From: Candidatus Omnitrophota bacterium
GTDB lineage: Bacteria; Omnitrophota; Gorgyraeia; Aquiviventales; Aquiviventaceae
Assembly (NCBI GenBank): GCA_016193175.1
Contig: JACPSR010000142.1
Coordinates: 54,332 to 118,331, forward strand
Length of the DNA stretch: 64,000 nucleotides
Direction of reading: 5' to 3'
In this document: one piece after another, positions 989-42,719 of the stretch
How positions within the stretch are numbered: the first letter of the stretch is position 1
Layout: each line of letters opens with the position of its first letter
The notes under the pieces: generated by a model
The model's database searches: none
What the model was told of the DNA's origin: nothing
The model's input: the letters and a program-made list of their open reading frames with translations, nothing else
Made by a program: the position numbers and the translations under genes

Positions 989-1008
989 CGCATGGGAGGC
1001 GATGCCGT

Positions 1009-1154
1009 GATCCCACGCCCTGCGACGGGCTGCCGCAGGCAGCCCCTGCAACGCGAGCAAGACGGACGGACATGGTGAGGCAAGCGTTCTTCAGTCTAGG
1101 TGGTGTTGCAGCGCCCCGCCCAAGGGCGGGGCAGCCGCAGGGCGTGGGATGATC
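1009..1154 (+). repeat. Palindromic junction element, copy 1 (146 bp)
   Basis: Left arm GATCCCACGCCCTG 1009-1022 and right arm CAGGGCGTGGGATGATC 1138-1154 (13-bp inverted repeat). Hairpins GGGCTGCC-GCA-GGCAGCCC 1027-1045 and CCCCGCCC-AA-GGGCGGGG 1114-1131. Inner stem CTGCAAC/GTTGCAG 1046-1052/1105-1111. The ATG of the next CDS (1149) lies in the right arm. Confidence 0.85.
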
Positions 1155-2162
1155 GCTGCGCAGCAACGCGACACCGTCGTGCTGACCTTTGGCGAGGCCC
1201 TGGCCCGCGCGACGACGCAGGCGATGGAACAGGACGAACGCGTCGTGATGTATGGCGAGGGGATCAACGATCCCGGCGGGTTCTTCGGGTCGACCGTCGG
1301 GGTGAGGGACCGCTTCTCCGAAGCGAGGTGTTTCGACGTGCCGAATTCAGAGGAAGCGTTGATGGGGTTCGGGATCGGAGCCGGCCTCATGGGGTATCGG
1401 CCGATCTTCGTCAACCTTCGCGTCGAGTTTCTGATGTTGGCTATGAATCAGCTCGTCAATCACGCGGCGCGATTACCAACGATGTCCGGCTATCAATGCA
1501 CGATCCCGATGACCGTCAGGGCCATTATCGGCAAGTCGTGGGGACAAGCCGCGCAGCATTCCAGCGCCCTGCACTCGCTGTTTGCGAACATCCCCGGTCT
1601 GCAGGTCGTCGTGCCATCGAATGTCCAGGATGCCCCAGGGTTGCTCCTGGCCTCCATCCAGTCCGATAGACCGACGGTGTTCATTGAGCTCAAATCGCTG
1701 TACGACCTGAAAGCTCCGGTGATGGTGCCGGTGGAGCCGCTTCCATTGGGGCAGGCTCAGGTCGTCCGCCCCGGCGCCGATCTGACCTGTGTGGCCATCT
1801 CCGAGATGGTGGGGTTCGCCGAGCGCGTCGCCCAGCGCCTGGCTCCTCTGGGCATCGAAGCGGAGGTGCTTGATCTGAGGACCCTGGCTCCCTTGGATGC
1901 CGAGGCGATTCTCGCGTCGGTGAAGAGGACGCGACGGGTGGCGGTCTTCGACATCGGGTGGGAGCCGTTCGGCCTGGCAGCCGAAGTCGCCCGGGTGGTC
2001 AGCACCAGCGATCAGTTTCGTCTCGCCGGCCCGCTCCTGAGCGTTGCCCGAGCGCACGAGCACACCCCGGCGAGTTGTTTTTTGGAATACCGCCACTATC
2101 CCGGGGAAGACGAGACGGTGGCGAGGATCCGCGCGCTCTTTTCACGGAGTGATGCCTCATGA
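1149..2162 (+). CDS. ThDP-dependent 2-oxoacid dehydrogenase E1 component, beta subunit (transketolase-like pyrimidine-binding and C-terminal domains)
   Basis: 337-aa ORF. LTFGEALARATTQAMEQDERVVMYGEGI and FDVPNSEEALMGFGIGAGLMGYRPI are typical E1-beta blocks. Pairs with the upstream alpha subunit. Confidence 0.85.
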   Translation: MIAAQQRDTVVLTFGEALARATTQAMEQDERVVMYGEGINDPGGFFGSTVGVRDRFSEARCFDVPNSEEALMGFGIGAGLMGYRPIFVNLRVEFLMLAMNQLVNHAARLPTMSGYQCTIPMTVRAIIGKSWGQAAQHSSALHSLFANIPGLQVVVPSNVQDAPGLLLASIQSDRPTVFIELKSLYDLKAPVMVPVEPLPLGQAQVVRPGADLTCVAISEMVGFAERVAQRLAPLGIEAEVLDLRTLAPLDAEAILASVKRTRRVAVFDIGWEPFGLAAEVARVVSTSDQFRLAGPLLSVARAHEHTPASCFLEYRHYPGEDETVARIRALFSRSDAS

Positions 2163-3139
2163 CGCCGGCCCTGATCTCCATCATCATCCCGGCGCGCAAC
2201 GAAGAAGGCAACATCCCTCGCCTGGAGCAGGAAGTGCTGGCCGTCGTGGAGGCCTTGCCGGATGAGTTTGAGTTCATCGTCGTGGATAACGACAGCACGG
2301 ACCGCACGGGGGAGCTAGTCAAAGCCATCTGCGCCCGCGATCCGCGCTGGAAATATCTGCGGTTGAGCCGCAACTTCACGGTGGAGATGTCGATGACCGC
2401 CGGCTTGCGCGCGGCGCGCGGTGAGGCCATGATCGTCCTGTATTCCGACCTCCAGGACCCTCCGGCGGTGATCCCTCGATTCATTGCGAAGTGGCGCGAG
2501 GGGTATGACGTGGTGTACGGGGTGCGGACGGCCAGGCCGGGAGAACCGGTCTGGAGAAACCTGGCGGTCCATTGGGTGTATCGCGTGATCGCCTGGTCAT
2601 CCGACGTGCCGATCCCGCCGGATGCGGGCGATTTTCGTCTGATCAGCCGGCAGGTCCGCGACGCCCTTGAGCGGTGCGGGGAGTACAACCGCTACCTGCG
2701 GGGGCTGATTGCCTGGCTGGGGTTTCGGCAGGTCGGCATCCCGTATGAGCGGCGGGCGAGAACCGCGGGGAGGAGCCAAGCCCCGTTTTGGCATCTCGTG
2801 TTCTTCGCCTTCAACGCCATCACGAGCTTTTCCCTCAAGCCGCTGCGGCTCTTTACGTTTCTCGGGTTGGCCCTGTTATTGCTGTCCGCCTTGGCGCTGC
2901 CGGTCTACGTCATCCTGGCCATTGTGGGATCGCCCCCGCCCGGGATCACGACCATCATCACCCTCCTCTTTGTGGCGATCGGGTTGAACAGCCTGGGGAT
3001 CGGCATCTTGGGAGAGTACCTCGGCCGGACCTACGCTGAGGTGAAGCGCCGGCCGCTCTATGTCATTCAAGAAACCGTCAACCTTCCAGCGGATGCGACA
3101 GGTCCTGTAGCGCTTCACCCGGTGTTGGAAGAGCGATGA
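2159..3139 (+). CDS. Family 2 glycosyltransferase, polyprenyl-phosphate sugar synthase type (DPM1/GtrB/CsbB/ArnC-like)
   Basis: SIIIPARNEEGNI, VVDNDSTDRT and DLQDPP motifs, plus two C-terminal TM helices. ATGA overlap with both neighbours. Confidence 0.8.
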   Translation: MTPALISIIIPARNEEGNIPRLEQEVLAVVEALPDEFEFIVVDNDSTDRTGELVKAICARDPRWKYLRLSRNFTVEMSMTAGLRAARGEAMIVLYSDLQDPPAVIPRFIAKWREGYDVVYGVRTARPGEPVWRNLAVHWVYRVIAWSSDVPIPPDAGDFRLISRQVRDALERCGEYNRYLRGLIAWLGFRQVGIPYERRARTAGRSQAPFWHLVFFAFNAITSFSLKPLRLFTFLGLALLLLSALALPVYVILAIVGSPPPGITTIITLLFVAIGLNSLGIGILGEYLGRTYAEVKRRPLYVIQETVNLPADATGPVALHPVLEER

Positions 3140-9093: not shown

Positions 9094-9094
9094 G

Positions 9095-11394: not shown

Positions 11395-11418
11395 AGGGAG
11401 TGCGACATCGAGATCGAG

Positions 11419-12918
11419 ATGGAACGTGCAGACCACCGAGGTGAAGGTACCCTCTCGCCCCGCGAGGTTGAGATGGTCAATGCCTACGGTCCCTATCATC
11501 ATGCCGTCTGGTCTGCTGGGGGTGTGGCGATCAGCCATGAAGAACGGCTCAGCGGCCGCGGGGAGTTCTTGGTCGATCGGATTCGCGAATCCCTCCTGAA
11601 GCGTTTCACACTCGATGAGATCAAGACGTTTTCCATTCTGGACGTGGGATGCTATGACGGGTGGATCCTGCAGCAACTCAGCGAGTTACCGTTTGCCCGG
11701 TTGGTCGGCATCGAGCCGCGAGAGAAAAATCTCATGAAAGGGCAGAAGGTGAGGGAACTCCTGCGCATTCCCTCGCGCGTTGAGTTCAAAGTCGGCGACC
11801 TTGATTCGCTGGGCGAGGAGACGTTCGACGTGGTCATCTGCGCTGGGTTGCTTCATCATGTCGAATCTACGCCGGCGGCGCTGCGCCGCCTGAGGGCTGT
11901 CTGCCGGCGGTTCCTGTTTATCGAGACGATCTGTCTCTCATCCCGGCATATCACGAAGGCGCTCCAGCGCGAGATTGAGATGAAGGATGTCGTGTACTTT
12001 TATAAGCGCAAAATCTGCGGGGTGACAGGCCAGAAATGGGAGTCATCCTATTCCGATGGGTCAACTACCAGGCTCTGTGTCGTGAACATCCCGTCCTTGG
12101 AATCGCTGACGATGTATCTGGATCTCTGTGGATTTGAAGGGGTGGACATCGTGACGAATCCCGCGGAGTACCGTGCAGCCGTCTGGAGGGATCAACGGGC
12201 CTGCAACGCCGTCTGTCTTTCCGCGGTCATCCGGGCCGAACAGCCGGAAGCCGTTTCTGAGGAAGAGTCCTGGGTGCAGGGGTATGAGAGGGGGCTGGCC
12301 AGAACGATCCTGAAGAAAGCGTACGTGCAACCGCTCTATGAGATCTGGTGTCTGCGAAAGAAACGGGTCCGTCTTCCCGTGTCCTGTTGGACCACCTGGC
12401 TGTATCTCCGTTCGCCAAACCGGTGGGCGGGCCTGTGTCATTCCCTCACGGCCATCTGGTTCAAGGATCGGTATGCGCTGGAGATCGTCAAAAATCTGAG
12501 GTTTAACCCGGAAGACAAGCTCCGTCTGGAATATGGCAAAGTCCTCTGCGACGAGGGCGATACCGAGGGGGCCATCGCGGTTCTGAAGGCCGTGGTGCAG
12601 ACGCTCAACGCGGATTGGTGGTCGGTGTATCGGTCCTTTGCGCTGCTCTCGGACGCCTACGTGCGGATCGGATCGCACGAAGAAGCACAGCGGTATGCCT
12701 CGTTGTGCGCCACCTGCAACCCGAAGTTTCCGCACATCGCTCAGGCGGCACGGGGATTTCCCGAGAGCGACCGACAGGACCACGATGATGGTGCGATGTC
12801 GATGATCCCACGCCCTGCTTCGGTCCCGCCAACGGCGGGACCGTGTTTGCCCACAGCGCATCAACCCATCTTGCAAACACACGCTGCCTGCGGCAGCGGG
12901 AAGCGGGGCGTGGGATGA
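11419..12918 (+). CDS. Class I SAM-dependent methyltransferase with C-terminal helical-repeat (TPR-like) region
   Basis: ILDVGCYDGWILQQL and FDVVICAGLLHHV motifs. The last ~38 codons (12805-12918) are encoded by junction element copy 2, so the true C-terminus is uncertain. An alternative start is at 11473. Confidence 0.6.
   Translation: MERADHRGEGTLSPREVEMVNAYGPYHHAVWSAGGVAISHEERLSGRGEFLVDRIRESLLKRFTLDEIKTFSILDVGCYDGWILQQLSELPFARLVGIEPREKNLMKGQKVRELLRIPSRVEFKVGDLDSLGEETFDVVICAGLLHHVESTPAALRRLRAVCRRFLFIETICLSSRHITKALQREIEMKDVVYFYKRKICGVTGQKWESSYSDGSTTRLCVVNIPSLESLTMYLDLCGFEGVDIVTNPAEYRAAVWRDQRACNAVCLSAVIRAEQPEAVSEEESWVQGYERGLARTILKKAYVQPLYEIWCLRKKRVRLPVSCWTTWLYLRSPNRWAGLCHSLTAIWFKDRYALEIVKNLRFNPEDKLRLEYGKVLCDEGDTEGAIAVLKAVVQTLNADWWSVYRSFALLSDAYVRIGSHEEAQRYASLCATCNPKFPHIAQAARGFPESDRQDHDDGAMSMIPRPASVPPTAGPCLPTAHQPILQTHAACGSGKRGVG
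12802..12918 (+). repeat. Palindromic junction element, copy 2 (117 bp, right arm slightly degenerate)
   Basis: Left arm ATGATCCCACGCCCTG 12802-12817 and right arm GGGGCGTGGGATGA 12905-12918. Hairpins GGTCCCGCC-AAC-GGCGGGACC 12822-12842 and CGCTGCC-TGC-GGCAGCG 12882-12898. Inner stem GTGTTTGC/GCAAACAC 12843-12850/12873-12880. Confidence 0.85.
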
Positions 12919-12934
12919 GCTGCGAAGGGATCAT

Positions 12935-13837
12935 GTGACGATGCGGGTGGTGGTGACCGGATCAGAGAGCTTCATCGGTAGGGAATTGCGACGGCATGGC
13001 CAAGCGAAACAGATCGAATGGGTCGGCCTGGATACGGCCCCCGCTGACGATCCGGGGCACATCCAGATCGACATTCGCTCTCCGGAGCTTGCGGATGTCA
13101 TCCCAGAGGGGCTGGACGCGGTGGTGCACCTCGCGGCCATTTCGCGTGATCAAGATTGTCGTGCCAACCCGCAGCAGGCATTTGATGTCAACGTGTCAGG
13201 GACCCTGAACGTCATACGGGCCGCACGGGAGCGAAACGCCCGCCAATTCATCTTCGCCTCGAGTGAATGGGTGTATGGGGACGTGAGCTCCGATGCCGTC
13301 CAGACGGAAGATCAGCCCATTGCGGTGACGGGGATCCGGTCCGAGTATGCACTGTCCAAACTAGTCGGGGAGCAAGTGCTCCGCATGGCCTTCGCCCAGG
13401 GTCTCTGTCCGGTCACCGTGCTGCGGTTCGGGATTGTGTACGGCCCAAGGCCTTCCAACTGGTCGGCCGTGGAGACGCTCTTTCACGCGGTACGGACACA
13501 ACAGACCGTGACGGTGGGAAGCCTGGAGACGGCAAGACGATTCATCCATGTCTCCGACATCGCTGAGGGGATTGTGAGCGCGATCGGACAGGACGGATTC
13601 CAGATCTTCAATCTCAGCGGGGATCGGCTCATCACCCTGCGTGAAGTAATCGAGCAGAGTGCGTTGTTGCTTGATCGACGCCCCACCGTGGTAGAGCGGG
13701 CGCCGGAAGGCGTGAGCATCCGCAATCCTGATAACCGAAAGGCGAAGCACCTGCTTGGCTGGGAACCCGCCACGGATCTCCCACATGGATTGCGATCCCT
13801 GGACGAGACGCTGCAGACGACCGGTGCGCATGAGTGA
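12935..13837 (+). CDS. NAD-dependent sugar epimerase/dehydratase (SDR)
   Basis: RVVVTGSESFIGREL Rossmann motif and catalytic YALSK. GTG start at 12935 or ATG at 12941. Confidence 0.8.
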   Translation: MTMRVVVTGSESFIGRELRRHGQAKQIEWVGLDTAPADDPGHIQIDIRSPELADVIPEGLDAVVHLAAISRDQDCRANPQQAFDVNVSGTLNVIRAARERNARQFIFASSEWVYGDVSSDAVQTEDQPIAVTGIRSEYALSKLVGEQVLRMAFAQGLCPVTVLRFGIVYGPRPSNWSAVETLFHAVRTQQTVTVGSLETARRFIHVSDIAEGIVSAIGQDGFQIFNLSGDRLITLREVIEQSALLLDRRPTVVERAPEGVSIRNPDNRKAKHLLGWEPATDLPHGLRSLDETLQTTGAHE

Positions 13838-13843
13838 CCACGC

Positions 13844-14005
13844 GATCCCACGCCCTGGCACCGGTAGCGCCTCAATGACCACGAGTGAATACGCGGACAC
13901 CGCAGGCTGGTTCGGCACTGCCGAGGCCGGCCAGCAGATGAGACCAACCGGAGGAGCCGGCCAGGGCCACGCGATGCGTGGCCCGTGCCAGGGCGTGGGA
14001 TGATC
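13844..14005 (+). repeat. Palindromic junction element, copy 3 (162 bp, longest)
   Basis: Arms extend to 15 bp: CCCACGCCCTGGCAC 13847-13861 and GTGCCAGGGCGTGGG 13985-13999. Hairpin GGGCCACGC-GAT-GCGTGGCCC 13964-13984. The downstream ATG at 14000 lies in the right arm. Confidence 0.85.
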
Positions 14006-15762: not shown

Positions 15763-16831
15763 TCGACCCGGGTTGCTTCGCCGGGTCCTGAGGTATTACG
15801 AGGCATGCCAATTTCCGCATCGGGTGCTCGTGGCGGACTCGAGTGACGCGCCTGCGGCGGAGGCGAACCGGCAGATCGTGGAGGCCGTCTCCCGCGCCAT
15901 GCCGGTCGAGTACCGGCGGTATGATTCCGCTCTTGAGGTGCCGATGAAACTGGCGGAAGCGCTCGAAGGGATTCAGTCGACGTACGCGGTGATCGGATCG
16001 GATGACGATTTTTTTGTTCCGAGTGCACTAGAACGAGGGGTGGCGTTTCTGGAATCGCATCCCGACTACGCCCTGGCGCATGGTGAGTCGGCGTATTTCG
16101 TCTTAGAGTCTGACAGGATCGTTTCCGGCCGGTGTGTGGGGGTGGGGCGATATCTGCAACGCACGATCGATCACGCGAGCGGCTCGGAGCGATTGGCGGC
16201 GCATCTCGCGCAATACACCACCACCTTTTATTCAGTCCATCGGACGGAGCAACTGCGCAGGAATTGGCGTCGAGTGGCTGCGCTGCCTCTCGATCATTTG
16301 TTCGACGAGTTGCTCCCGTCATGCCTGTCGCTCATCGAAGGCAAGAGTCAGAAACTCGACGAACTCTACATGGTGAGGCAAATCCACTCTGCGCAAACAG
16401 CACGGACACGGGGTTCCAGAGGCCTCGGTTGGGTGATGGGTCAACGCTGGTCAGAACACTACGCACGATTTCAGGATCTGCTGGCTGAGGAGCTGGTTGG
16501 CCAGGACAGGATCACCATGGAGGCCGCGAGGGAAGTTGCCAAACAGGCGTTCCGGCCCTATGTAGCCCGATATGTGGCCAAAGAAGTGGGGAAGTCGCGT
16601 CAGTTGCACGATAGCGTCGCCATCAGGATCGGGGCGCGAGTGCGCAGGGTGGCACGAGGGATGCCTCTGCTGCGTTGGGGCTGGCACCTGGCACGCGCGA
16701 TCAGGCCGATGTCGCGCACAGCCATCTCGCTTGAGGCGTTGCTTCGCCAGACCTCGCGCTATCACGAAGGATTTATGCCGATCTATCGAGCGGTGACGGC
16801 GCAGAACGGTCACGAGGTCGGTGCGTCATGA
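15734..16831 (+). CDS. Glycosyltransferase family 2-like protein (paralog 1 of a tandem pair)
   Basis: LILPTYNRPGLLRRVLRYY N-terminus (GT-A style) and VADSSD. C-terminal SRYHEGFMPIYRAVT is shared with the next gene. Confidence 0.5.
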   Translation: MLSLILPTYNRPGLLRRVLRYYEACQFPHRVLVADSSDAPAAEANRQIVEAVSRAMPVEYRRYDSALEVPMKLAEALEGIQSTYAVIGSDDDFFVPSALERGVAFLESHPDYALAHGESAYFVLESDRIVSGRCVGVGRYLQRTIDHASGSERLAAHLAQYTTTFYSVHRTEQLRRNWRRVAALPLDHLFDELLPSCLSLIEGKSQKLDELYMVRQIHSAQTARTRGSRGLGWVMGQRWSEHYARFQDLLAEELVGQDRITMEAAREVAKQAFRPYVARYVAKEVGKSRQLHDSVAIRIGARVRRVARGMPLLRWGWHLARAIRPMSRTAISLEALLRQTSRYHEGFMPIYRAVTAQNGHEVGAS

Positions 16832-16941
16832 TCCGCCCTAGCAGTCCCGCCGAAGGCGGGGTCGCCCGACGACCACAGGATTGCAACAGCGGGTGCGACG
16901 GCTCCACCACGGGTGGAGCCCTGCCAGGGCGTGGGATGATC
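16828..16941 (+). repeat. Palindromic junction element, copy 4 (114 bp, left arm carries a 2-nt deletion)
   Basis: Left arm ATGATCCGCCCT 16828-16839 (CA missing) and right arm CAGGGCGTGGGATGATC 16925-16941. Hairpins CCCGCC-GAA-GGCGGG 16846-16860 and GGCTCCACC-ACG-GGTGGAGCC 16900-16920. Upstream stop TGA 16829-16831 lies in the left arm; downstream ATG 16936 lies in the right arm. Confidence 0.85.
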
Positions 16942-23325: not shown

Positions 23326-23413
23326 GCCAACCGTGTCATCCTTCGTTGAGACAGCGAGGCGGCTGTGCGCAGCCTATGAGGCGATGTACCTCGACGGTGG
23401 CGTGGCATGGTGA
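23326..23413 (+). pseudogene. C-terminal remnant of a paralog of CDS 18982-20076
   Basis: ARRLCAAYEAMYLDGGVAW* versus LDRLCADYEATYLDGGVRW*. DNA similarity runs from 23363, matching 20026 onward. It lies in otherwise non-coding 23281-23406. Confidence 0.55.
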
Positions 23414-27039: not shown

Positions 27040-28961
27040 GAACGATTGGGGTGGTGACGGTTGGTCGCTCAGATTACGGCATCTACGTGCCCATCCTGCG
27101 CGCCATTCAGCACGAGCCGGCTCTGCAGTTGCATCTCATCGTTAGCGGGATGCATCTGTTGGAGGAGTTCGGGTTGACGGTGCGCGAGATTGAAGCCGAC
27201 AGATTTCCGATCGGCGCGCGCGTGTTCCTCCCGTTGCCTGAGGACAGCCCCGAGGCGATCGCGGCGGCGATCGGTGCGGCGGTGACGGGGTTTGCTCGCG
27301 CGTATGCCTCGCAGCGGCCGGATCTGTTGATCGTGCTGGGGGACCGGTTCGAGATGTACGCCGCGGCGGTGGCGGCTTTGCCCTTGAAGATTCCGGTGGC
27401 GCATATCCATGGTGGGGAACTGACGCAAGGTGCGATGGATGACGCGCTGCGTCATTCACTGACGAAACTCAGCCATCTTCACTTCGTCGCGACGGAGGAG
27501 TATGCCCACCGCGTCATCCAACTCGGGGAAGAGCCCTGGCGCGTGACGGTGTCGGGTGCGCCGAGCTTGGATCACGTCGGGATGGTGCCGTTGCTGACGG
27601 CTGAAGCCCTGTGTAACCGGTTTGGATGGCATTGGGAGGCGGCGCCGCTACTGGTGACCTACCATCCGGTGACACTGGAGTACGAGCAGACCGAGTGGCA
27701 GATGACTGAACTCCTCGACGCCCTGGAGGAATGCAAGCGGCCCATGATCTTCACGATGCCCAATGCCGACATGCATGGCCGTGTGATTCGACGACTCCTC
27801 ACAGCGTTCATCGCCTCCCACCCCAATGCGCACGCGGTGGAGAATCTTGGAACCCAAGGCTATTTCAGCTTGATGGCCGCTGCCGCGGCGATGATCGGAA
27901 ACTCCTCCAGCGGTCTGATTGAAGCGCCGTCGTTCGGTCTGCCGGTCGTGAACATCGGGACGAGGCAACAGGGGCGGGTACGGGCCTCGAACGTCATTGA
28001 TGTGGGCTATAGTCGAACGGAGATCATCCGCGGCATTCGCCAGGCGCTGACGGCCGAGTTCCGAGCCGCCATCCGCCATGGCACCAACCCCTATGGCGAT
28101 GGGCACGCCGCCACGGTGATCGTGAACACCCTCAAGGCGATGCCGTTGGATGATCGGTTGATCAAAAAGCGATTCGTCGATCTGCCGGTGGAGAGGCCGG
28201 ACCGTGCTGACTCGCCGGCCCTCGTGCCAACTCGGGGTGAACCGATGGAACGGTGTGTGATCCTTGGGGGCGGAGGGCACGCCCGTGTGGTCATCGACAG
28301 CCTCCTCGCCAGCAAGCTGGCGGTGCCGTATGCCGTCGTTGACGCTGATCGGTCGCTGTGGGGCAAGGAGCTGTTGGGCGTGCCGGTCGTCGGGGACGAT
28401 GAGCGGCTGCGAGAACTGCGCTGTGAGGGGGTGACGCGATTCATCGTGGGGCTTGGCGGGGTCGGGGATAACGGCCCGCGACAGCAGCTCTTTTGTCTGG
28501 GAATGACCAGTGGTCTTGCCCCGCTGACGGTATGCCACCCGTCTGCGATTTGTTCACCCTCAGCGGTGATCGGTGAGGGATCCTTTCTCGCGCCGGCAAC
28601 CGTGGTGAACTCAGGGGCCGGACTGGGGGTGAATGTGATTGTGAATACGGGGGCGATCGTGGAACATGACTGCGCCATCGGTGACCACGTCCACCTCGCG
28701 ACCGGGGCAAGACTCTCAGGGCACGTCCTCGTCGGCGCGGGCGCCCATATTGGCGCCGGGGCCACCATTCGGCAGCGTGTGACGATCGGCGAGGGGGCGA
28801 TTGTTGGCGCGGGCGCGGTCGTCGTGAAATCGGTTGAGCCCTGGACGGTTGTGGTGGGCGTGCCCGCCCGAGTCCTGGAGCAAGAGCCGGCTGACGCTCA
28901 CGACAAAACGCATGACCGCCAACACGTCTCAGGGCGACAACAGAAGGAAGGGGCCCTATGA
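27036..28961 (+). CDS. neuC: Fusion protein: hydrolysing UDP/GDP-N-acetylhexosamine 2-epimerase (NeuC/LegG-like) with a NeuD/PglD-family hexapeptide acetyltransferase
   Basis: The N-terminal ~385 aa start IGVVTVGRSDYGIYVPILRAI. The C-terminal ~220 aa contain VILGGGGHARVVIDSL plus left-handed beta-helix repeats (GAHIGAGATIRQRVTIGEGAIVGAGAVV). Confidence 0.85.
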   Translation: MRTIGVVTVGRSDYGIYVPILRAIQHEPALQLHLIVSGMHLLEEFGLTVREIEADRFPIGARVFLPLPEDSPEAIAAAIGAAVTGFARAYASQRPDLLIVLGDRFEMYAAAVAALPLKIPVAHIHGGELTQGAMDDALRHSLTKLSHLHFVATEEYAHRVIQLGEEPWRVTVSGAPSLDHVGMVPLLTAEALCNRFGWHWEAAPLLVTYHPVTLEYEQTEWQMTELLDALEECKRPMIFTMPNADMHGRVIRRLLTAFIASHPNAHAVENLGTQGYFSLMAAAAAMIGNSSSGLIEAPSFGLPVVNIGTRQQGRVRASNVIDVGYSRTEIIRGIRQALTAEFRAAIRHGTNPYGDGHAATVIVNTLKAMPLDDRLIKKRFVDLPVERPDRADSPALVPTRGEPMERCVILGGGGHARVVIDSLLASKLAVPYAVVDADRSLWGKELLGVPVVGDDERLRELRCEGVTRFIVGLGGVGDNGPRQQLFCLGMTSGLAPLTVCHPSAICSPSAVIGEGSFLAPATVVNSGAGLGVNVIVNTGAIVEHDCAIGDHVHLATGARLSGHVLVGAGAHIGAGATIRQRVTIGEGAIVGAGAVVVKSVEPWTVVVGVPARVLEQEPADAHDKTHDRQHVSGRQQKEGAL

Positions 28962-30505
28962 TTCTGGTAACGATTGTCAGACCGCCCGTGGTGTTCTCCC
29001 GGCGGTCCTATAGCGTCGCCATCGTGCCCCCGCTTGGGCCCGCCTATTTAGCGGCGGCGCTGCGAACAGCAGGGCATCAGGTGAGGATCGTTGATGCCGT
29101 GGGGGGACGGATTTCGCACATCGGGGCCACCGCACGGCCGAACCTCCTCTATCAGGGGCTCTCGATCGACGAGATGATCGCCGGCATGGACCCCGAGACG
29201 CAGCTCATGGCCGTGTCGGCCATGTTCTCACAGGATTGGCCGCATGTCGAAGTCTTGATCGCGAAGATTGCGCAGCGGTTTCCAGAGGTCCCGATCGTGG
29301 TCGGAGGAGAACATGCCACCGCCGCGTGGGACTACATCTTGGACACCTCGCCAGCGATCACCTGTGTCGGTCTGGGCGAGGGGGAAGAGACCATTTGTGA
29401 TCTGGCCAGGTGGGTCGAACACGGAGGCGACCTGAGCGCCATCCCGGGCATCGCCTACCGGCAAGCCGGGCGTCCCGTCATGACGTCGCCGCGCAAACGG
29501 ATCATGGCCGTCGATGACATTCCCCCTCCGGCCTGGAATTTGGTTCCGCTCGAGGCCTATCTGGACGGCGGCTACGGCCACGGGGTCGATTTGGGACGGA
29601 GCATGCCGATCTTGGCCACACGCGGATGCCCATTCCAGTGCACGTTCTGCTCAAACCCGGCGATGTGGACGACCCGCTATGTGATGCGGGATGTCGGCAA
29701 AGTCGTCGATGAAATTGCGCGCTATCTGCGCGAGTATCGCGCGACGAACGTCGATTTTTACGACCTCACCGCCATCATCAGGAAAGATTGGATCATGAAG
29801 TTCTGCGACGAAATTCTGCACAGGCGGCTGACACTCACCTGGCAGCTTCCGAGCGGAACGCGCAGCGAAGCCCTTGACGCCGAAGCGCTGCGCAAAATGT
29901 TTGAGGCTGGATGCCGCAACCTGACCTATGCCCCTGAGAGCGGGTCCGAGCGGACATTGAAGGCGATCAAGAAAGAAGTGCGCTTGCCAAAGATGGTCAG
30001 ATCGATCAAAGCGGCGAAGCGCGCGGGCATTCATCTCAAGTGTAACCTGATCATCGGCTTTCCGAAGGAACGGCGCCGTGACCTCTTTCGCACGATCTGG
30101 TTTGCCTTGAAGATGGCCTGGATGGGCGTCGATGACGCCCCGCTCTTTCTGTTTTCGCCCTACCCCGGAAGCGAGTTGTATCACTATCTGCGCTCAACCG
30201 GAGCGATCCAGAAGATGGACAACGACTATTTTGAGTCGCTGCTCTGCTTTATGGATCTGTCCAAGTCGAGCCGCTATTGTGAGCGCATCGGGCCTCTGGA
30301 GCTCAACATCTACCGATGTGTCGGGATGTCCCTCTTCTATGTGCTGAGCTACCTGCGGCACCCCGCACGAATCGTGCGGACGATCCGGAACCTCTGGCAC
30401 AGCGAGTCAGCCACCGTGTTTGAGCAACGGCTCATTGAGATGAAGCGACGAGTGTCCATGGCGATGGCAGGCCGGTCGGTCGAATCGGCGGTGAATTCTC
30501 GATGA
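28958..30505 (+). CDS. B12-binding domain radical SAM enzyme (class B)
   Basis: N-terminal cobalamin-binding-like Rossmann region and radical SAM cluster motif RGCPFQCTFCSNP. Confidence 0.8.
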   Translation: MILVTIVRPPVVFSRRSYSVAIVPPLGPAYLAAALRTAGHQVRIVDAVGGRISHIGATARPNLLYQGLSIDEMIAGMDPETQLMAVSAMFSQDWPHVEVLIAKIAQRFPEVPIVVGGEHATAAWDYILDTSPAITCVGLGEGEETICDLARWVEHGGDLSAIPGIAYRQAGRPVMTSPRKRIMAVDDIPPPAWNLVPLEAYLDGGYGHGVDLGRSMPILATRGCPFQCTFCSNPAMWTTRYVMRDVGKVVDEIARYLREYRATNVDFYDLTAIIRKDWIMKFCDEILHRRLTLTWQLPSGTRSEALDAEALRKMFEAGCRNLTYAPESGSERTLKAIKKEVRLPKMVRSIKAAKRAGIHLKCNLIIGFPKERRRDLFRTIWFALKMAWMGVDDAPLFLFSPYPGSELYHYLRSTGAIQKMDNDYFESLLCFMDLSKSSRYCERIGPLELNIYRCVGMSLFYVLSYLRHPARIVRTIRNLWHSESATVFEQRLIEMKRRVSMAMAGRSVESAVNSR

Positions 30506-32025
30506 CGCGAGGAGGAGGTTGGCGGCTCCCGCTGCTGCTCTATCTGGCGGGCCTGCTCCATTGGATCGGCTTCCTGTATCTCGATGTCACGCCCTCCGGC
30601 CAGGAGCGGGAACTGGTGTCCATAGCGCTCCGGAGTCCTGAGACGCTCTTGAAGCGTCCGAACTTCGGGATGGAAGACGGCGTCTACATCGGCGACGTCT
30701 GGTTCGTCTATGAGCGCATGCTCACGGCGCTCCAGCAGGCGGTTCGCAGCCGCCAGATCCCCTACCATCTGCCTGGCCTGAGCGGCTATGAGATGATGCC
30801 AACCACCGCCTCGCCGGTCGGCGATCGGCTCTTCGGTTTTCCCAATGGCTGGCCCTGGTCGCCGGAGGCGCTCCTCTTGGCCGTCCTGGATCTTCCAACC
30901 TTCGTCATCGTGACGTGGCTCATCATGTACTCGGTGGGATTTGCGGGGTGCCTCTTGATCCGGCGCCAGTACAGTCTGGGGCCGATGGCCTTCACGTTCC
31001 TGGCGGTGCTGTTCCATCTGAACGGTTGGATCACCACCCACATGACGACCAAGATGCCCGATAACACCGGCTACTATCTGAGCCCGTATCTCGTGCTGCT
31101 CCTGCTGAGGGCCGGGGAAGTGGCCCCCACGGATCGCTACGCGCAGCGGCGTCTCGGGTTATGGATCGGGTTGGTGATGGCGCTGATGTGGTGGCAGGGG
31201 TCGTGCCATCCCTTCATCCACTGGCTCACCATGCTGGGCTTCTGGGGCATTGTGAATTGGAGGAAATGGCGGGTCACGGTGGTGAGTGTGGTGAGCGCGT
31301 TTGCCCTGGCGGCGTTTCGCGTGATTCCGCCTGCGCTCAGTTGGGGCATGAAGCACCGCTATCATGTGGACAATCCCGCGATCATGGGGTTCTGGTCATT
31401 CGATCAATACATCGACGCGCTCGCGGTGTGCCACCCGTTCATCCCCGACGGGGGGTGGGAGCAATTCAATTGCTACGTCAGCGTGTTTGGCTTATGGGCG
31501 ATTCTCTATCTCGCGTTCTGGGCACCATGGAACGGCTCGAGGTGGGTGCGCCTGCGTCCCTGGCAGTCCTTGCTCATTCCCTCCGTGATCTTGGCGGTGA
31601 TGTCGTTCCGTCACATGAAGAGCGTGCTCATTCCGAATTGGATCCCCCTCTTTAACGCCGAGGCCTACACAGGACGATACATGATGATCCCCCTGGTCGT
31701 GTGGATCATTGTCGCGAGTATCAACCTCCAGGGCGCGGTCGAGGCGTTCTGGTCGCAGCGGCGGCTGCGATGGCTCATGGTCAGCGGGCTTGGCGTGATC
31801 GCGGCGTCCTTGCTGAACCATTCGCGCTTGTGGCGCATCTGGATGGCGACAAAGTTTGCGCACTGGGGTGGCTATGGGCCCACGCTGCCTGCGCGGTTGG
31901 CGAACGACATGACCGACCGCCTGTACATCAACGCGGTCGACCTGAGTCTGGGCATCAGCCTGGTCGCCTTGGTCGTGGTGATCGCCTTGTTGGTCGTGCC
32001 GCGCAAGCGACAGGGCGTGGGATGA
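30502..32025 (+). CDS. Polytopic membrane protein of unknown function (polymerase, ligase or GT-C candidate)
   Basis: 507 aa with many hydrophobic helices. ATGA junctions on both sides. The last codons QGVG* coincide with a solo junction-element arm. Confidence 0.55.
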   Translation: MTRGGGWRLPLLLYLAGLLHWIGFLYLDVTPSGQERELVSIALRSPETLLKRPNFGMEDGVYIGDVWFVYERMLTALQQAVRSRQIPYHLPGLSGYEMMPTTASPVGDRLFGFPNGWPWSPEALLLAVLDLPTFVIVTWLIMYSVGFAGCLLIRRQYSLGPMAFTFLAVLFHLNGWITTHMTTKMPDNTGYYLSPYLVLLLLRAGEVAPTDRYAQRRLGLWIGLVMALMWWQGSCHPFIHWLTMLGFWGIVNWRKWRVTVVSVVSAFALAAFRVIPPALSWGMKHRYHVDNPAIMGFWSFDQYIDALAVCHPFIPDGGWEQFNCYVSVFGLWAILYLAFWAPWNGSRWVRLRPWQSLLIPSVILAVMSFRHMKSVLIPNWIPLFNAEAYTGRYMMIPLVVWIIVASINLQGAVEAFWSQRRLRWLMVSGLGVIAASLLNHSRLWRIWMATKFAHWGGYGPTLPARLANDMTDRLYINAVDLSLGISLVALVVVIALLVVPRKRQGVG

Positions 32026-32027
32026 TC
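32011..32027 (+). repeat. Solo right arm of the junction element
   Basis: CAGGGCGTGGGATGATC is identical to the right arms of copies 1, 3 and 4. It carries the stop of 30502-32025 and the ATG (32022) of the hisF paralog. No convincing left arm is present. Confidence 0.7.
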
Positions 32028-34799: not shown

Positions 34800-34812
34800 A
34801 CGAGGACGCTCA

Positions 34813-35889
34813 ATGTACACGGACCTGACCACGTTGTGCATCGGACGAGCGAGTTCGTTACGAGCCGCCATAGCCCAGATGGACCGCAGCCGATTTGGCA
34901 TCGTGCTGGTGACCGACGACCAGCGACGCCTGGTGGGCACGATCACCGATGGGGATATCCGCCGCGCCATTTTGGCGAACGTGGATCTTGAGCAATCGGT
35001 GAACGTGCTCCTGGCGCGAAAGGCAACAACTCGCTTTGCGAAGCCCATCACGGCCGCGGCGGGCTCCGATCCCAATCTCTACCTGGCACTCCTGAAACAG
35101 CACAACATCCTTCACCTTCCGCTGATCGACGATGAGCAGCACGTCGTGGGGATGGTGACGAGGGATGAATTTCTGCCCAACGAGGTGCTGCCGCTCCACG
35201 CAGTGGTCATGGCGGGAGGGCTCGGTAGTCGTCTGCACCCCCTCACCGAAGAGCTCCCGAAACCGATGCTGCCGATCGGCAATCGTCCATTGCTCGAGAT
35301 CATCATCGCGCAGCTACGAGAGGCCGGCATTCGTCGCGTCCAGGTCACGACGCACCACAAGCCGGAGAAGATTGAGGAGCATTTTGGCGATGGGAAGGAC
35401 TTCGGGATCAACCTCTCCTATGTCGCAGAAGACCGACCGTTAGGAACAGCGGGGGCCCTGGGATTGCTCGGCGTTCCCAAGGAGACGACGTTGGTCATGA
35501 ACGGCGATATCCTGACGCAGGTGGATTTCCGGGCGATGCTGGTCTACCACCGGGAGTACGGGGCGGACCTCACGATGGCAGTGCGCCAGTACGACCTCAA
35601 GGTGCCCTACGGCGTGGTCGAGTGCGAGGATTCGGTGGTCCGTTCCCTCAGCGAAAAACCCACGGTGGGATTTTTTGTCAACGCGGGCATTTATCTGCTG
35701 GAGCCTCCCGTCTACCAATTCATCCCGAACGGCCAACCGTTCGACATGACGGAGTTGATCCAGTGCCTGCTCAAGGCGGGGAGGATGGTCGTCAGCTTCC
35801 CGGTCCGGGAATACTGGCTTGATATCGGAGAGCACGCGGGGTATGAGCGGGCAGAGCAAGACGTTCGCAACGAGAAGGTGCGGGTATGA
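34813..35889 (+). CDS. CBS-domain sugar-phosphate nucleotidyltransferase (PtmE/HddC-like)
   Basis: Tandem CBS region (LVGTITDGDIRR, VVGMVTRDEF), then NTP-transferase motif AVVMAGGLGSRLHPLTEELPKPMLPI. Confidence 0.8.
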   Translation: MYTDLTTLCIGRASSLRAAIAQMDRSRFGIVLVTDDQRRLVGTITDGDIRRAILANVDLEQSVNVLLARKATTRFAKPITAAAGSDPNLYLALLKQHNILHLPLIDDEQHVVGMVTRDEFLPNEVLPLHAVVMAGGLGSRLHPLTEELPKPMLPIGNRPLLEIIIAQLREAGIRRVQVTTHHKPEKIEEHFGDGKDFGINLSYVAEDRPLGTAGALGLLGVPKETTLVMNGDILTQVDFRAMLVYHREYGADLTMAVRQYDLKVPYGVVECEDSVVRSLSEKPTVGFFVNAGIYLLEPPVYQFIPNGQPFDMTELIQCLLKAGRMVVSFPVREYWLDIGEHAGYERAEQDVRNEKVRV

Positions 35890-36002
35890 TCCCACGCCCT
35901 AGCTGGGCTCCGCCTAAAGGCGGAGCCGCGAAACGGTGCCCCGTGTTTCTGTCATTGATGTTTCGCCCCACCAATAGGCGGGGCAGCCAGGGCGTGGGAT
36001 GA
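35886..36002 (+). repeat. Palindromic junction element, copy 5 (117 bp)
   Basis: Left arm ATGATCCCACGCCCT 35886-35900 and right arm CAGGGCGTGGGATGA 35988-36002. Hairpins GGCTCCGCC-TAAA-GGCGGAGCC 35906-35927 and CCCCACC-AATA-GGCGGGG 35966-35983. Inner stem CGAAAC/GTTTCG 35929-35934/35960-35965. Upstream TGA 35887-35889 and downstream ATG 35999 lie in the arms. Confidence 0.9.
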
Positions 36003-40943: not shown

Positions 40944-42607
40944 CATTGGACACGCGAGTGGAGACTCCTCCAACCTTGGCAGACGAACCCTCTCATCCTG
41001 ACGCTGAAGGATCCACCCAGACATCTGCAAGGGCGCTCGAGCAACTGGAAGCTGCCTTGGACGCGGTGCGTCGTCAGTGCCCCTGGCTTCCGGTGTTCGC
41101 AATTCGATGGATGCACTTAAAGCATCCCGTGCACCCCGTGCAGCTGCTCCTCCTGCGCGAACATCTGGGTGTTAGTGGAGAGACACCCGATCGTACCGAG
41201 CGACCTCGGTGGGTATTCACCCAGTGGATTCGCCCAAGACTCCTGAGGCGACTCGGACAATGTGTGATCTATGCGATCTACGTCAGTTGCCGGCTGGTCA
41301 GGCTTCAGATTGCGCTGCGTCGTCAGGTGCGGGCCCTCAGGCGACAGCCGTTTGAGGTGCTGATCAAAACGTGCTGCTTTGAAGCAGAGCGGCCGGCGGA
41401 TGGGAGCGATTTTTATTTCGGTGATTTGCAGCAACGATTGGTCAGGCGTGGCGTGCGAACACTGCTCTTGTCCGGGAATGTGCGGCGTGGCAGTTGGACG
41501 GCGTTTGGCCGGGCCCATCTCGCCGCGCCGCCGCTGGCACGGCTGCCGGAGTTAGCGCTGCTGTCTCCACTGGCGCCACTTCGTCTGATGCTGGCGCAAG
41601 TTCGGGCCGCCATCCGGTTGCGTCGCAGGGTGCGGGAGACCGACGATCCGTTGATCAAACACATCACCCTGCTCGCCAGCCACGATTGTCTGGCGCCGGA
41701 TACCACGCGGGCTGGACTGTATTGCTGGGTCATGAAGCGTGCCGTTCAGACGTGGCGTCCTCGGGCCTTCGTGACCCTCTACGAGGGACACGCCTGGGAG
41801 GCGTGTGCGCGATGGGGCGTGAAGGCTCACGATCCGTCCTGTCAAACCGTGGGGTATCAACATACCGCCATCTTTCCGGAATCGCTGTCGTTAACGTCTC
41901 CATCGAAGGCGCCGACAGACCGTCTCGTGCCTGACACCATTCTGGCCTTGGGGCAGATTCCGTTGGACTTCATGGCGTCTGGACACGCAGATCATCACGT
42001 CCGTCTGGTGCGGTTTGGGAGTTTTCGCTATCGCCATGCGAATGTCGATCGACCGGCGGATCGAACCCGTCGTGTCATCCTCGTCGTTCCCGAAGGGTTT
42101 GCGTCGGAGGTCAAGGTGCTCTTTGAGTTCGCCGTGGCCTGCGCCAAGCGGTTGCCCCGCTATACCTTTGTGCTCCGATGCCATCCAGAAGTGCCCATGG
42201 CCGTGGCGGTCCGATTGATGCCAGGGGCACTGACCAGCCAACCGAACATTGAGCTTTCGGACCGTCGTCTGATCGAGGAGGATTTTGCCCGCTCGTCAGC
42301 CGTGTTGTATCGCGGATCCTCGACGGTCCTCTATGCGGTCCTTCACGGCCTGTTGCCGCTGTACGTCCATATGCCCACCCTGCTGGATCGTGACCCGCTG
42401 TACCGCATGCCGGCCTGGCGCCGACGCTGTGTCAGTCCTGATCATCTCGCGACGCAGTTGGCGTGGCATGAGCAAGCCCCGATGGAGCGCTTGGAAGAGG
42501 AATGGGCGCGGGCGGTGCGGTATGTCACGGATTATACCGGCCCGGTGACCGATGAGCAGATCGACGCGTGGCTTACCACGGTCGGTCTCAACGGGAGCGC
42601 GCGCTGA
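40940..42607 (+). CDS. Large hypothetical protein (555 aa), possible GT-B-like surface carbohydrate biosynthesis protein
   Basis: No firm motif. C-terminal SAVLYRGSSTVLYAVLHGLLPLYVH resembles the GT-B C-terminal region. Its stop TGA 42605-42607 opens junction element copy 6. Confidence 0.45.
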   Translation: MTLDTRVETPPTLADEPSHPDAEGSTQTSARALEQLEAALDAVRRQCPWLPVFAIRWMHLKHPVHPVQLLLLREHLGVSGETPDRTERPRWVFTQWIRPRLLRRLGQCVIYAIYVSCRLVRLQIALRRQVRALRRQPFEVLIKTCCFEAERPADGSDFYFGDLQQRLVRRGVRTLLLSGNVRRGSWTAFGRAHLAAPPLARLPELALLSPLAPLRLMLAQVRAAIRLRRRVRETDDPLIKHITLLASHDCLAPDTTRAGLYCWVMKRAVQTWRPRAFVTLYEGHAWEACARWGVKAHDPSCQTVGYQHTAIFPESLSLTSPSKAPTDRLVPDTILALGQIPLDFMASGHADHHVRLVRFGSFRYRHANVDRPADRTRRVILVVPEGFASEVKVLFEFAVACAKRLPRYTFVLRCHPEVPMAVAVRLMPGALTSQPNIELSDRRLIEEDFARSSAVLYRGSSTVLYAVLHGLLPLYVHMPTLLDRDPLYRMPAWRRRCVSPDHLATQLAWHEQAPMERLEEEWARAVRYVTDYTGPVTDEQIDAWLTTVGLNGSAR

Positions 42608-42719
42608 TCCCACGCCCTCGCAGCCTCGCCTTCGGCGAGGTCGCCAACGAGACGAAATGTCAAGAGGGGCTGGCGACGGCTCCGCCTACGGCGGAGCCCT
42701 GCCAGGGCGTGGGATGATG
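42605..42719 (+). repeat. Palindromic junction element, copy 6 (115 bp)
   Basis: Left arm TGATCCCACGCCCT 42605-42618 and right arm CAGGGCGTGGGATGATG 42703-42719. Hairpins CCTCGCC-TTC-GGCGAGG 42624-42640 and GGCTCCGCC-TAC-GGCGGAGCC 42678-42698. Inner stem GTCGCCA/TGGCGAC 42640-42646/42671-42677. Confidence 0.9.

Follow-up and report, generated by a model that had tools for sequence, protein, structure and literature searches.

A palindromic, MITE-like family that probably lands at TGA in Omnitrophota operons and is bridged by a predicted relay reading frame

Introduction

The window, by which we mean the whole 64,000-nucleotide stretch analysed here, raises the question of how a repeated palindrome could enter a coupled operon and be tolerated there. 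Six copies occupy intergenic junctions of one giant Omnitrophota sugar-synthesis operon, in which open reading frames (ORFs) of at least 150 codons meet at 20 ATGA and 4 GTGA overlaps, in agreement with the roughly twenty ordinary ATGA junctions of a first-pass annotation; five of the overlaps read ATGAT, 60014 among them. That annotation proposed that insertion duplicated four to five target bases, ATGA(T), leaving a stop codon on the left of each copy and a start codon on the right, and that this duplication also explained the tolerance of the operon. We compared the window copies with relatives in other genomes, with their empty orthologous junctions and with known repeat families.

Results

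A profile search of the window returned exactly six copies and one solo right end (32005-32026), and every direct flank of the six copies was exactly as first listed:

Copy 1, 1008..1152, + strand: core 1012-1148 (137 bases), flanks gTGAT / ATGAT; left TGA 1008-1010 (inside GTGA), element T1011-A1149, right TGA 1150-1152
Copy 2, 12803..12918, + strand: core 12807-12914 (108 bases), flanks ATGAT / ATGAg; left TGA 12803-12805, element 12806-12915, right TGA 12916-12918
Copy 3 with relay ORF, 13830..14003, + strand: core 13847-13999 (153 bases), flanks cGAT / ATGAT; left repeat decayed to CGA 13843-13845, element 13846-14000, right TGA 14001-14003
Copy 4, 16828..16939, + strand: core 16833-16935, left core shortened to CCGCCCT, flanks ATGAT / ATGAT; left ATGA 16828-16831, element 16832-16936 (left core minus 3 bases), right ATGA 16936-16939
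Solo right terminus, 32012..32025, + strand: AGGGCGTGGG-ATGA at an ordinary ATGA junction
Copy 5 with relay ORF, 35886..36002, + strand: core 35891-35998 (108 bases), flanks ATGAT / ATGAa; left ATGA 35886-35889, element 35890-35999, right ATGA 35999-36002
Copy 6, 42604..42717, + strand: core 42609-42713 (105 bases), flanks cTGAT / ATGAT; left CTGA 42604-42607, element 42608-42714, right ATGA 42714-42717

The copies lie 0.9-19 kb apart, all inside one coherent operon, and an exact 10-mer was enriched in the window (20 matches with at most one mismatch against 8.8 expected; 0/100 shuffles reached 20). Translated in the relay frame, the solo terminus supplies the C-terminal end (…RQGVG, then stop) of a 507-residue ORF (30502..32025); it may be the remnant of a seventh copy.

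Together with 18 copies from four other MAGs, which show the same TGAT/ATGA flank pattern, the six form a family of 24, sampled from five MAGs in all and lying between unrelated gene pairs. The unit reads T-CCCACGCCCT … AGGGCGTGGG-A, with a core-to-core length of 99-153 bases (most commonly 105). Its terminal inverted repeat, TCCCACGCCCT / AGGGCGTGGGA, is almost invariant across the 24 copies and five further base pairs beside the core covary, the stem extension showing 25 double-change cells where shuffles give 5.7 (0/500 shuffles reached 25). Copies from the window and from the other MAGs share 78-87% identity, with unrelated flanking DNA. Several subfamilies have only the termini in common, their arms differing in sequence with pairing maintained, and related copies differ in length by 3, 6 and 21 bases. 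Copy 1, copy 4 and the copy at locus L067 are decayed or broken, and assembly contigs end within copies, as they do in dispersed repeats.

All 24 copies fold into a closing stem of 15-18 bp with hairpin arms, three in 22 copies and four in the other two, at -58 to -99 kcal/mol; z scores against shuffles ranged from -3.2 (copy 4) to -8.9 in the 12 copies scored. A hairpin about 16 bases inside each terminus is conserved in shape, not in sequence, and the hairpin of the left arm differs from that of the right, the two not being inverted copies of each other. Sense and antisense strands fold equally well and G-U makes up about 3% of pairs, suggesting that the hairpins may matter at the DNA rather than the RNA level. 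Rfam gave no match across the whole window, and copy 6 gave only chance-level hits (best E = 0.086, far under threshold).

The left flank is ATGAT in 19 copies, GTGAT in three, CTGAT in one and GCGAT in one, giving TGAT in 23/24, and the right flank has the form A-TGA-n, with ATGA in 23/24; its fifth base is T in 8 and A, C or G in 15 of these 23. TGA stands at both ends of 22 copies, the two exceptions being one base off. The alternative parse in the first-pass annotation, with AT inside the inverted repeat and no duplication, was half right: the inverted repeat does end in T and A, but the A:T pair beyond them follows of itself, its A closing the left TGA and its T opening the right TGA.

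The proposed stop and start roles of the flanks were borne out in part. The right ATG is the start of the downstream gene in every window copy except copy 2, whereas the left TGA is the true stop of the upstream gene in copies 4, 5 and 6 only. At copy 1, the upstream stop lies 20 bases before the left TGA and an E1-beta-like gene begins at ATG 1149; the site reconstructs to GGGAGG, seven bases and GTGATC, which reads as a former GTG start preceded by its ribosome-binding site. Copy 2 sits at an out-of-frame ATGA within the non-conserved tail of a methyltransferase ORF (11419..12918), which continues through the element in the relay frame as far as the right TGA; the element encodes its final 37 residues (IPRPASV…KRGVG), and homologues stop about 50 residues sooner. 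Copies 1 and 2 thus retain TGA flanks though the coding role is absent there. At copy 3, ATG 13830 overlaps the 3' end of an epimerase gene (stop 13835-13837, ten bases ahead of the left repeat), the relay frame stays open over 58 codons (13830 to 14003) and a transketolase-N gene begins at ATG 14000. The left ATGA of copy 4 combines the stop of a 381-residue gene with the old start, and its ATG shares the frame of the downstream GT2 gene, making a 36-residue N-terminal extension of that protein possible. At copy 5, the left ATGA carries an NTP-transferase stop and the right one an epimerase start, and the predicted relay peptide has 38 residues (MIPRP…SQGVG). The left CTGA of copy 6 carries the stop of a 585-residue gene; the relay frame is open with CTG as its first codon, and the old start is the second ATG, 42717.

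Empty orthologous junctions, all from relatives at 59-91% protein identity, read ATGA once, supporting the claim that insertion occurred at pre-existing (A)TGA sites that now carry one TGA per side. The fifth base is A, not the predicted T. For copy 5, four loci read ATGAAC (L128), ATGAAG (L129 and L130) and ATGAAA (L139); for copy 6, L217 and L218 read gggATGAactg, L218 sharing the five-gene order of the window, and in a 91% relative (the contig of P0241) genes 1..273 and 270..1292 overlap by 4 bases. Orthologues of the gene downstream of copy 6 begin M(R/N/K)C and the window protein begins MMRC, consistent with an added ATG; seven of the eight N-termini examined have a single M, and P0244 starts MMNC.

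An ORF running from the left xTG without a stop through the element and ending exactly on the right TGA, here called the relay, was found in 19/24 copies and in 10/12 lineages (p = 5e-7). Length is divisible by 3 in 20/24 copies (p = 6.6e-7), so that a mini-ORF without internal stops begins at the old start codon and extends for 35-57 codons where that start is intact, with the predicted peptide pattern M-I-P-R-P … G-V-G. The relay frame lacks stops in 21/24 copies, compared with 23/48 for the other frames (Fisher p = 9e-4), and in-frame copies are open in 20/20 cases as found and in 8/20 if the element is flipped. In copy 2, copy 4 and L002 the element is fused to a neighbouring gene. The relay is broken in copy 1 (length not a multiple of 3, two stops), L051 and L067, which together with the CTG start of copy 6 indicates that it is not essential everywhere.

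Discussion

The best overall explanation, which we regard as probable, is a non-autonomous, MITE-like palindromic family in Omnitrophota MAGs that lands at TGA and is bridged by the relay frame. The best parse places T-CCCACGCCCT…AGGGCGTGGG-A between 3-base TGA repeats rather than ATGAT. The left T would belong to the element because the right fifth base varies and empty sites read ATGAA, and a 3-base duplication is more likely than a 4-base one (ATGA) because five of the 24 left flanks carry G, C or CGA and the right always A; at the three GTGA sites a duplicated GTG start would have required no change, yet the right base is A. A cut-and-paste element with the core CCCACGCCCT…AGGGCGTGGG that duplicates all of ATGA(T), as first proposed, is accordingly unlikely: ATGAT does stand on the left in 19/24 copies, on the right in eight and at five ordinary junctions, but, besides the fifth base and the ATGAA sites, left GTGA (3), CTGA and GCGA are each paired with right ATGA, and T…A lengthens the inverted repeat as expected of bases owned by the element. 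We find it very improbable that nothing beyond AT was duplicated, with AT lying within a 12-base inverted repeat ATCCCACGCCCT and left TG and right GA either selected as stop and start or reflecting a target TG|GA, or a target TGATGA with AT duplication. The 23-copy alignment pairs AT with AT in each of its 22 distinct rows, which permits this parse. Without duplication, however, taking out ATCCC…GGGAT would rebuild copy 5 to ATGGAAG, with neither stop nor overlap, where four orthologues read ATGAAx; AT duplication predicts MMKV and MMRC ancestors, against the single M of 7/8 orthologues (P0244 with MMNC being the exception); and copies 1 and 2 hold TGA flanks that have no stop or start function.

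On the preferred parse, the TGA pair would be a 3-base target-site duplication or, equally, would combine the TGA of the target with a second one that the element brings at its right cleavage site, and sequence alone cannot separate such a duplication from a single-strand transposon whose right end bears its own TGA. A strand-specific mover with the same anatomy, namely an HUH transposase of the IS200/IS605 or RAYT type, or a site-specific recombinase whose crossover core is TGA, rather than a classical DDE enzyme, is thus a possible but clearly less favoured author; it would insert 3' of TGA, with the arms serving as protein-recognised DNA hairpins. IS200/IS605 elements have subterminal hairpins and no terminal inverted repeats, insert 3' of a fixed short target in fixed orientation and need no true target duplication. 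In favour of such a mover are a specific, non-palindromic triplet target, an orientation locked to it (12/12 related copy pairs align in the forward sense only), subterminal hairpins of conserved shape whose pairing is nearly all Watson-Crick and equal on both strands, as DNA hairpins predict, and a GC skew that is positive in the element's orientation at 15/18 loci and near zero at the other three. The 11-17 bp terminal inverted repeat is nevertheless foreign to IS200/IS605 ends, no HUH gene was seen within the loci examined, and selection on the relay ORF also explains the orientation lock (20/20 open against 8/20 flipped). A REP is a 20-40 base palindrome headed by the tetranucleotide GTAG or CGTC, and a REPIN is two inverted REPs; GC-rich hairpins of conserved shape within transcription units are a common feature, but the termini here are ATCCCACGCCCT, the GTAG/CGTC head is absent and the end hairpins are not mutual inverted copies. 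We give still less credence to a host intercistronic module, that is, a structure for RNA processing or stability, or a device that sets stoichiometry, spread in glycan operons. Its appeal lies in a very stable fold placed exactly between cistrons, an architecture conserved with covariation and an orientation that always follows gene direction; against it, stability and G-U use show no sense-strand bias, Rfam matches are absent, orthologous junctions in relatives work without the element, and in several genomes the copies separate gene pairs that are unrelated, some copies being decayed and some interrupted by contig ends as dispersed repeats are. Integron attC sites, in which RYYYAAC … GTTRRRY core sites bound single-gene cassettes, were rejected: these cores are absent and the copies lie kilobases apart inside one operon.

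Bacterial MITEs such as Correia/NEMIS, ERIC, Nezha and Chunjie have been reviewed, and Chunjie was reported within an operon that it did not disrupt (PMC3184786). The family resembles MITEs in its size (<200 bases), terminal inverted repeats, short flanking direct repeats (TGA, single in the 59-91%-identical relatives), stable fold, many dispersed copies and lack of a transposase. It differs in its three-arm junction with covarying arms, where a typical MITE is one long hairpin, in subfamilies with only termini in common, in a stop-codon triplet as target, in a length and frame constrained for translation, and in that no partner IS is known. A search for element ends in the window and some 20 related loci (~215 kb) yielded neither an autonomous element nor a transposase with the same termini, and viral contigs yielded no autonomous element. 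Recent presence/absence polymorphism was not seen in the little strain data available, in which Logan contigs match the window at 100% identity and the MAG JACPTW, 99.93% identical, also carries copy 1.

Among repeats fused in frame to genes are the Rickettsia palindromic elements, palindromic repeats of ~105-146 bases translated within ORFs (Ogata 2000, cited in PMC3184786), and copy 2, copy 4 and L002 are likewise fused to their neighbours; those elements are in-frame insertions inside coding sequences, whereas the Omnitrophota element is usually a separate mini-ORF bridging genes via two ATGA overlaps. The closest functional parallel is the MIRU (mycobacterial interspersed repetitive unit; Supply et al. 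1997), summarised in PMC12548453 as a short, transcription-oriented intergenic repeat of operons, apparently inserted at start codons, whose internal ORF shares a 4-base overlap (-4 spacing) with the flanking gene, a coupling that minimises effects on expression. The corresponding layout, an internal ORF placed to overlap the flanking stop and start, is seen here: in 19/24 copies the ORF from the left xTG ends on the right TGA. MIRUs are direct, often tandem repeat units and are not known to have terminal inverted repeats or a multi-arm palindromic fold, whereas the Omnitrophota element is palindromic, occurs once per site with TGA on both sides, belongs to a different phylum and has no sequence relationship to them. 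By analogy, then, it appears to work like a MIRU without being a member of that family.

These comparisons suggest how the element could be accommodated. It would land at TGA and end with TGA on either side, as the flanks and empty orthologous sites indicate; at an ATGA overlap, the left copy would preserve both the stop of the upstream gene and the former start codon, and the terminal A of the element plus the repeated TG would create a new ATG overlapping a new TGA. Ribosomes would end the upstream gene, restart at the overlapping old ATG, traverse and melt the structure, halt at the right TGA and begin the downstream gene from its new ATG, which overlaps that TGA, so that translational coupling would survive the insertion. 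Judged from its ORF layout, the element is thus a putative MIRU-like translational relay. Duplication appears insufficient by itself to account for tolerance in the coupled operon, for which the stop-free, in-frame relay ORF would be the stronger explanation.

Palindromic repeats within a coupled glycan operon

The window carries ~57 co-directional genes on the + strand that form one tightly coupled operon, with a GC content of 62% and a GC skew that is positive throughout; the skew was set aside as evidence because gene direction and replication direction are not separable by it. The operon encodes enzymes of nucleotide-sugar and glycan biosynthesis, including epimerases, NTP-transferases, aminotransferases, glycosyltransferases, methyltransferases, radical SAM enzymes and transketolase/E1-like pairs, all on the + strand. 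Searching the window with a profile built from the family of palindromic MITE-like repeats recovered six copies and a solo right end (32005-32026), and nothing else. These copies and their flanks agreed exactly with those listed in the first-pass annotation.

Cores of the repeat in the window (forward-strand positions)
1012-1148: copy 1
12807-12914: copy 2
13847-13999: copy 3
16833-16935: copy 4
35891-35998: copy 5
42609-42713: copy 6

The source is a Candidatus Omnitrophica MAG, in which a 191,948-base contig encodes a protein (P0001) 100% identical to one of the window. In SRR121134xx runs, Logan contigs matched the window at 100% identity and a second MAG, JACPTW01, at 99.93% over 12 kb, and no strain polymorphism was found in the elements covered by these 99.93-100% identical sequences. 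The methyltransferase gene that reads through copy 2 encodes 487 residues in JACPTW010000094.1 (locus L214) and 499 in the window, as expected from an indel of 12 codons (36 bases) that begins at window position 12128 (12128-12163). Independent Logan assemblies of the same strain break inside copy 5 (loci L121, L125 and L127 start at window position 35971, L124 and L126 at 35917); such breaks are typical of a dispersed repeat and suggest many further genomic copies.

Flanks and empty sites point to a repeated TGA

The first-pass annotation had proposed that the elements inserted into ATGA stop/start overlaps and duplicated ATGA(T), leaving a TGA on the left and an ATG on the right. Its description of the ordinary junctions held, in that we counted 20 ATGA and 4 GTGA overlaps between long ORFs, with five overlaps reading ATGAT, the one at 60014 among them. 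At the copies themselves both flanks were present, but only copies 4, 5 and 6 have a left TGA that actually terminates the upstream gene: in copies 1 and 3 that gene ends 20 and 10 bases before it, and in copy 2 the upstream ORF continues across the whole insert. In five of the six, the downstream gene begins at the right ATG. To compare flanks across the family, all 24 copies, 18 of them from four other MAGs, were oriented so that the flanks read xTGAT…ATGAn.

Flanks of the 24 copies
Left flank: ATGAT 19, GTGAT 3, CTGAT 1, GCGAT 1
Right flank: ATGA 23, ATGG 1
Right flank, fifth base: T in 8 copies, otherwise A, C or G

The termini read TCCCACGCCCT … AGGGCGTGGGA. Because the left T is constant whereas the matching position on the right is variable, this T was assigned to the element, and the right A, constant against a variable x on the left, is most likely the element's as well. 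The variable left flanks include three GTGA sites, where a duplicated GTG would have been a usable start. Parsed in this way, the inverted repeat is extended by T…A and the directly repeated unit is TGA, with the extra A:T pair arising as a by-product of the last base of the left TGA facing the first base of the right TGA.

As no relative closer than 91% protein identity was present in the collections searched, evidence on empty sites was taken from orthologous junctions. The copy 5 junction, between an NTP-transferase and an epimerase gene, is a single ATGA overlap in four relatives with 61-72% epimerase identity.

Empty copy 5 junction in four retrieved loci
L128: gtgagATGAacg
L129: cagctATGAagg
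L130: tctccATGAagg
L139: gaacgATGAaag

In the window this junction reads gtATGA-T[…]A-TGAagg, and removal of the element and one TGA gives gtATGAagg. Copy 6 lies between the genes for a 565-585-residue protein and a Gfo/Idh/MocA oxidoreductase. Here two orthologous loci, L217 (80%) and L218 (79%, with the five-gene order of the window kept), read gggATGAactg; the contig encoding protein P0241 (91%) has a 4-base overlap by its gene coordinates (genes 1..273 and 270..1292), and L216 (84%) has the start ATGCGGTGC within a 13-base overlap. The element is absent from all four junctions. The downstream orthologues examined mostly begin M-R/N/K-C (P0244 begins MMNC) and the window protein begins M-M-R-C, so that the first ATG is the added one. 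Orthologues of copies 2-4 were unusable as empty sites, as gene order or gene type differs.

The empty copy 5 junctions, and those of L217 and L218 at copy 6, contain the single ATGA anticipated by the first-pass annotation, but the base that follows is A and not T. Taken with the constant T/A and their variable neighbours, they favour TGA over ATGA(T) as the duplicated unit. The alternative in which AT belongs to the inverted repeat and nothing was duplicated is right that the inverted repeat extends beyond the core, by T…A; however, the extra A:T pair is accounted for by a repeated TGA, and this parse predicts ATGGAAG, without a stop, at copy 5. Duplication of AT predicts an additional Met codon at both the copy 5 and copy 6 sites. 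Both parses fit less well than a TGA repeat.

In a ~70% identical relative (L132, 1268-1595), the NTP-transferase/epimerase junction holds an unrelated 328-base, GC-rich, hairpin-filled spacer with a predicted folding energy of -166 kcal/mol, so structured inserts may have landed at this junction more than once.

A translatable frame bridges the two overlaps

Starting from the left xTG, a relay frame crosses the element as xTG ATC CCA CGC CCT … GGC GTG GGA TGA. In 19 of the 24 copies this ORF runs without an internal stop and terminates precisely at the right TGA, which overlaps the right ATG. The core spans a multiple of 3 bases in 20/24 copies (99, 102, 105, 108, 123, 138 or 153 bases; binomial p = 6.6e-7), and length differences among related copies are 3, 6 or 21 bases. 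When copies were counted by lineage as a guard against double-counting relatives, the relay was open and in frame in 10/12 (p = 5e-7). The relay frame was stop-free in 21/24 copies, compared with 23/48 for the other two frames (p = 9e-4). In copy 4 (103 bases) the left ATG is fused in frame to the downstream gene, and in locus L002 mutation of the right TGA to TGG fuses the relay ORF to the downstream gene; the frame is lost in copy 1, L051 and L067, the last of these being a relative of L070 that is one base shorter. The encoded mini-peptides are alike only at their terminus-encoded ends (MIPRP…QGVG), indicating a constraint on translatability rather than on the product. An AGGG in the right terminus, six to seven bases before the ATG, could serve as a weak mimic of a ribosome-binding site.

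Insertion would rebuild an ATGA overlap on both sides, with the translatable frame bridging the two. The first-pass annotation had attributed tolerance of the element in a coupled operon to the duplication; tolerance is best explained by the relay frame. The Omnitrophota element matches the proposal made for MIRUs, which are held to insert at start codons and to contain an ORF that is coupled to the gene with a spacing of -4 (PMC12548453, which cites Supply et al. 1997).

The sites of copies 1, 2 and 3 argue for a mechanism rather than selection. That of copy 1, where the left TGA is not a stop, reconstructs to GGGAGG-7 bases-GTGATC, an ordinary GTG start with a ribosome-binding site. Copy 2 lies within the non-conserved tail of the methyltransferase, at an ATGA that is out of frame; the last 37 residues of this protein are element-encoded, and its homologues end ~50 residues earlier. 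Copy 3, with CGA as its left repeat, is probably 12 bases inside the former 5' end of the downstream gene, with ATG 13830 in frame across the reconstructed site.

The element also distorts public gene calls, with starts placed inside copies and upstream proteins extended through them, and assemblies break at its copies. The oxidoreductase is called at 360 residues from a start inside copy 6 (L120-L121 calls, compared with window 42657-43739), its real start being the right ATG, and the methyltransferase is annotated with the 37-residue tail (P0121). Four homologues of the 42714-43739 product (P0252, P0308, P0309, P0326) have non-homologous, Arg/Pro/Ala-rich C-terminal tails of 18-20 residues, which look like read-through into other intergenic repeats.

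Structure and orientation of the element

All 24 copies fold with a closing stem of 15-18 bp, carrying three arms in 22/24 and four hairpin loops in two, and z scores against shuffles ranged from -3.2 (copy 4) to -8.9 in the 12 copies scored. Essentially no variation is seen in the outer 12 base pairs. The five pairs that follow covary, with 97% of cells paired (37-47% in slid controls) and 25 double-change cells against 5.7 in shuffles (0/500 reach 25). The arms fall into at least six unrelated subfamilies of common layout; MAFFT could not bring these into register for a single covariance alignment, so covariation was counted for the closing stem only and arms were described copy by copy. Pairing is nearly all Watson-Crick, and the antisense strand folds equally well (sense favoured in 9/24 copies, p = 0.2). 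A structure selected in sense-strand RNA was dropped, there being no asymmetry in folding energy or G-U counts, and the palindromes therefore look like DNA-level or inherited master-copy features.

The internal sequence always faces the same way with respect to its TGA flanks and to the genes, and 12/12 related pairs align forward only. This orientation lock was rejected as proof of a strand-specific mechanism, since flipping leaves the relay frame open in only 8/20 in-frame copies and closes it in 12/20; copy 5, for example, has two stops when reversed. Selection on the relay is thus sufficient for the lock, which does not decide between DDE and single-strand mobilisation.

Distribution of the family

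One genome per species was scanned with the pattern CCCACGCCCT-N(75-105)-AGGGCGTGGG, flanks unconstrained, which yielded chance palindromes, an unrelated abundant family and the element of interest. The element was found in the Omnitrophota MAGs JACPTX01, MHGA01 and JACQHS01 and in CAYNXT01 (labelled Planctomycetales), and relaxed matching added two copies to reach 24. The MHGA01 copies match window copies 4 and 6 at 84-87% identity, in surrounding DNA without a match. The scan of viral contigs found nothing, and neither the whole window nor copy 6 matched an Rfam family. Readings as tRNA-like or integron attC sequences were ruled out on anatomy.

The abundant family, from Pseudomonadales/Halieaceae, was treated as separate: its inverted repeat continues as GGTTGGAAC, and only a 10-mer is common to both. 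Its repeat of ~107 bases, nearly the element's length, is very abundant (L001, L007, L010-L012 and >50 other loci), in JAZFYA01 (Pseudomonadales MT5bin.1) and also in Halioglobus, Halieaceae and Oceanicoccus MAGs. It has a ~21-base terminal inverted repeat (TCGGTTGGAAC-CCCACGCCCT), both internal orientations and no TGA flanks. The 10-mer common to the two families may reflect chance or shared descent.

Unpaired ends flanking a gene, as in an autonomous element, were absent from the window and ~20 related loci, where the search returned no more than the solo end at 32012 and a degenerate match in L068. This solo right terminus (AGGGCGTGGG-ATGA-T, 32012-32025) supplies the final codons (…RQGVG*) of an ORF of 507 residues that is membrane-like and has no Pfam match. 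The 507-residue gene and the B12-radical-SAM gene before it (28958-32025) are absent from the otherwise syntenic L145, and an ATGAT stands at each edge of this block, at 28958 and 32022. What is seen here may be what is left of a seventh copy, or a gain of genes associated with the element.

Discussion

We place the element, as a new family, among repeats of a known kind, which resemble MITEs in build and MIRUs in their way of working; its multi-arm palindromic architecture is unusual. A 3-base T-N-A duplication is reminiscent of certain IS5-group and Harbinger-type elements, and the fixed asymmetric target and subterminal hairpins recall the IS200/IS605 group. We consider it unlikely that the element is mobile DNA specialised for stop/start overlaps, in which a structure-recognising, strand-specific enzyme (HUH/RAYT-like or a recombinase) places four-way-junction DNA at TGA, and in which the T…A termini, 3n length and stop-free frame evolved so that each insertion rebuilds both ATGA overlaps and is translationally invisible. 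If true, such a strategy would not have been described before and Omnitrophota might hold a new class of transposon, and the copies might also act as recombination joints that shuffle glycan-operon modules.

As MIRU-like repeats, the copies provide a sequence-level account of how a selfish repeat can persist among the 57 genes of a tightly coupled operon. With 12-base termini that are invariant and arms that covary freely, the element is a possible translational-coupling spacer, and the termini offer a handle for tracing the mobilising enzyme. The idea put forward for mycobacterial MIRUs, which are unlike MITEs, now extends to an unrelated palindromic element of an uncultured phylum, which suggests that translationally transparent repeats arose by convergent evolution.
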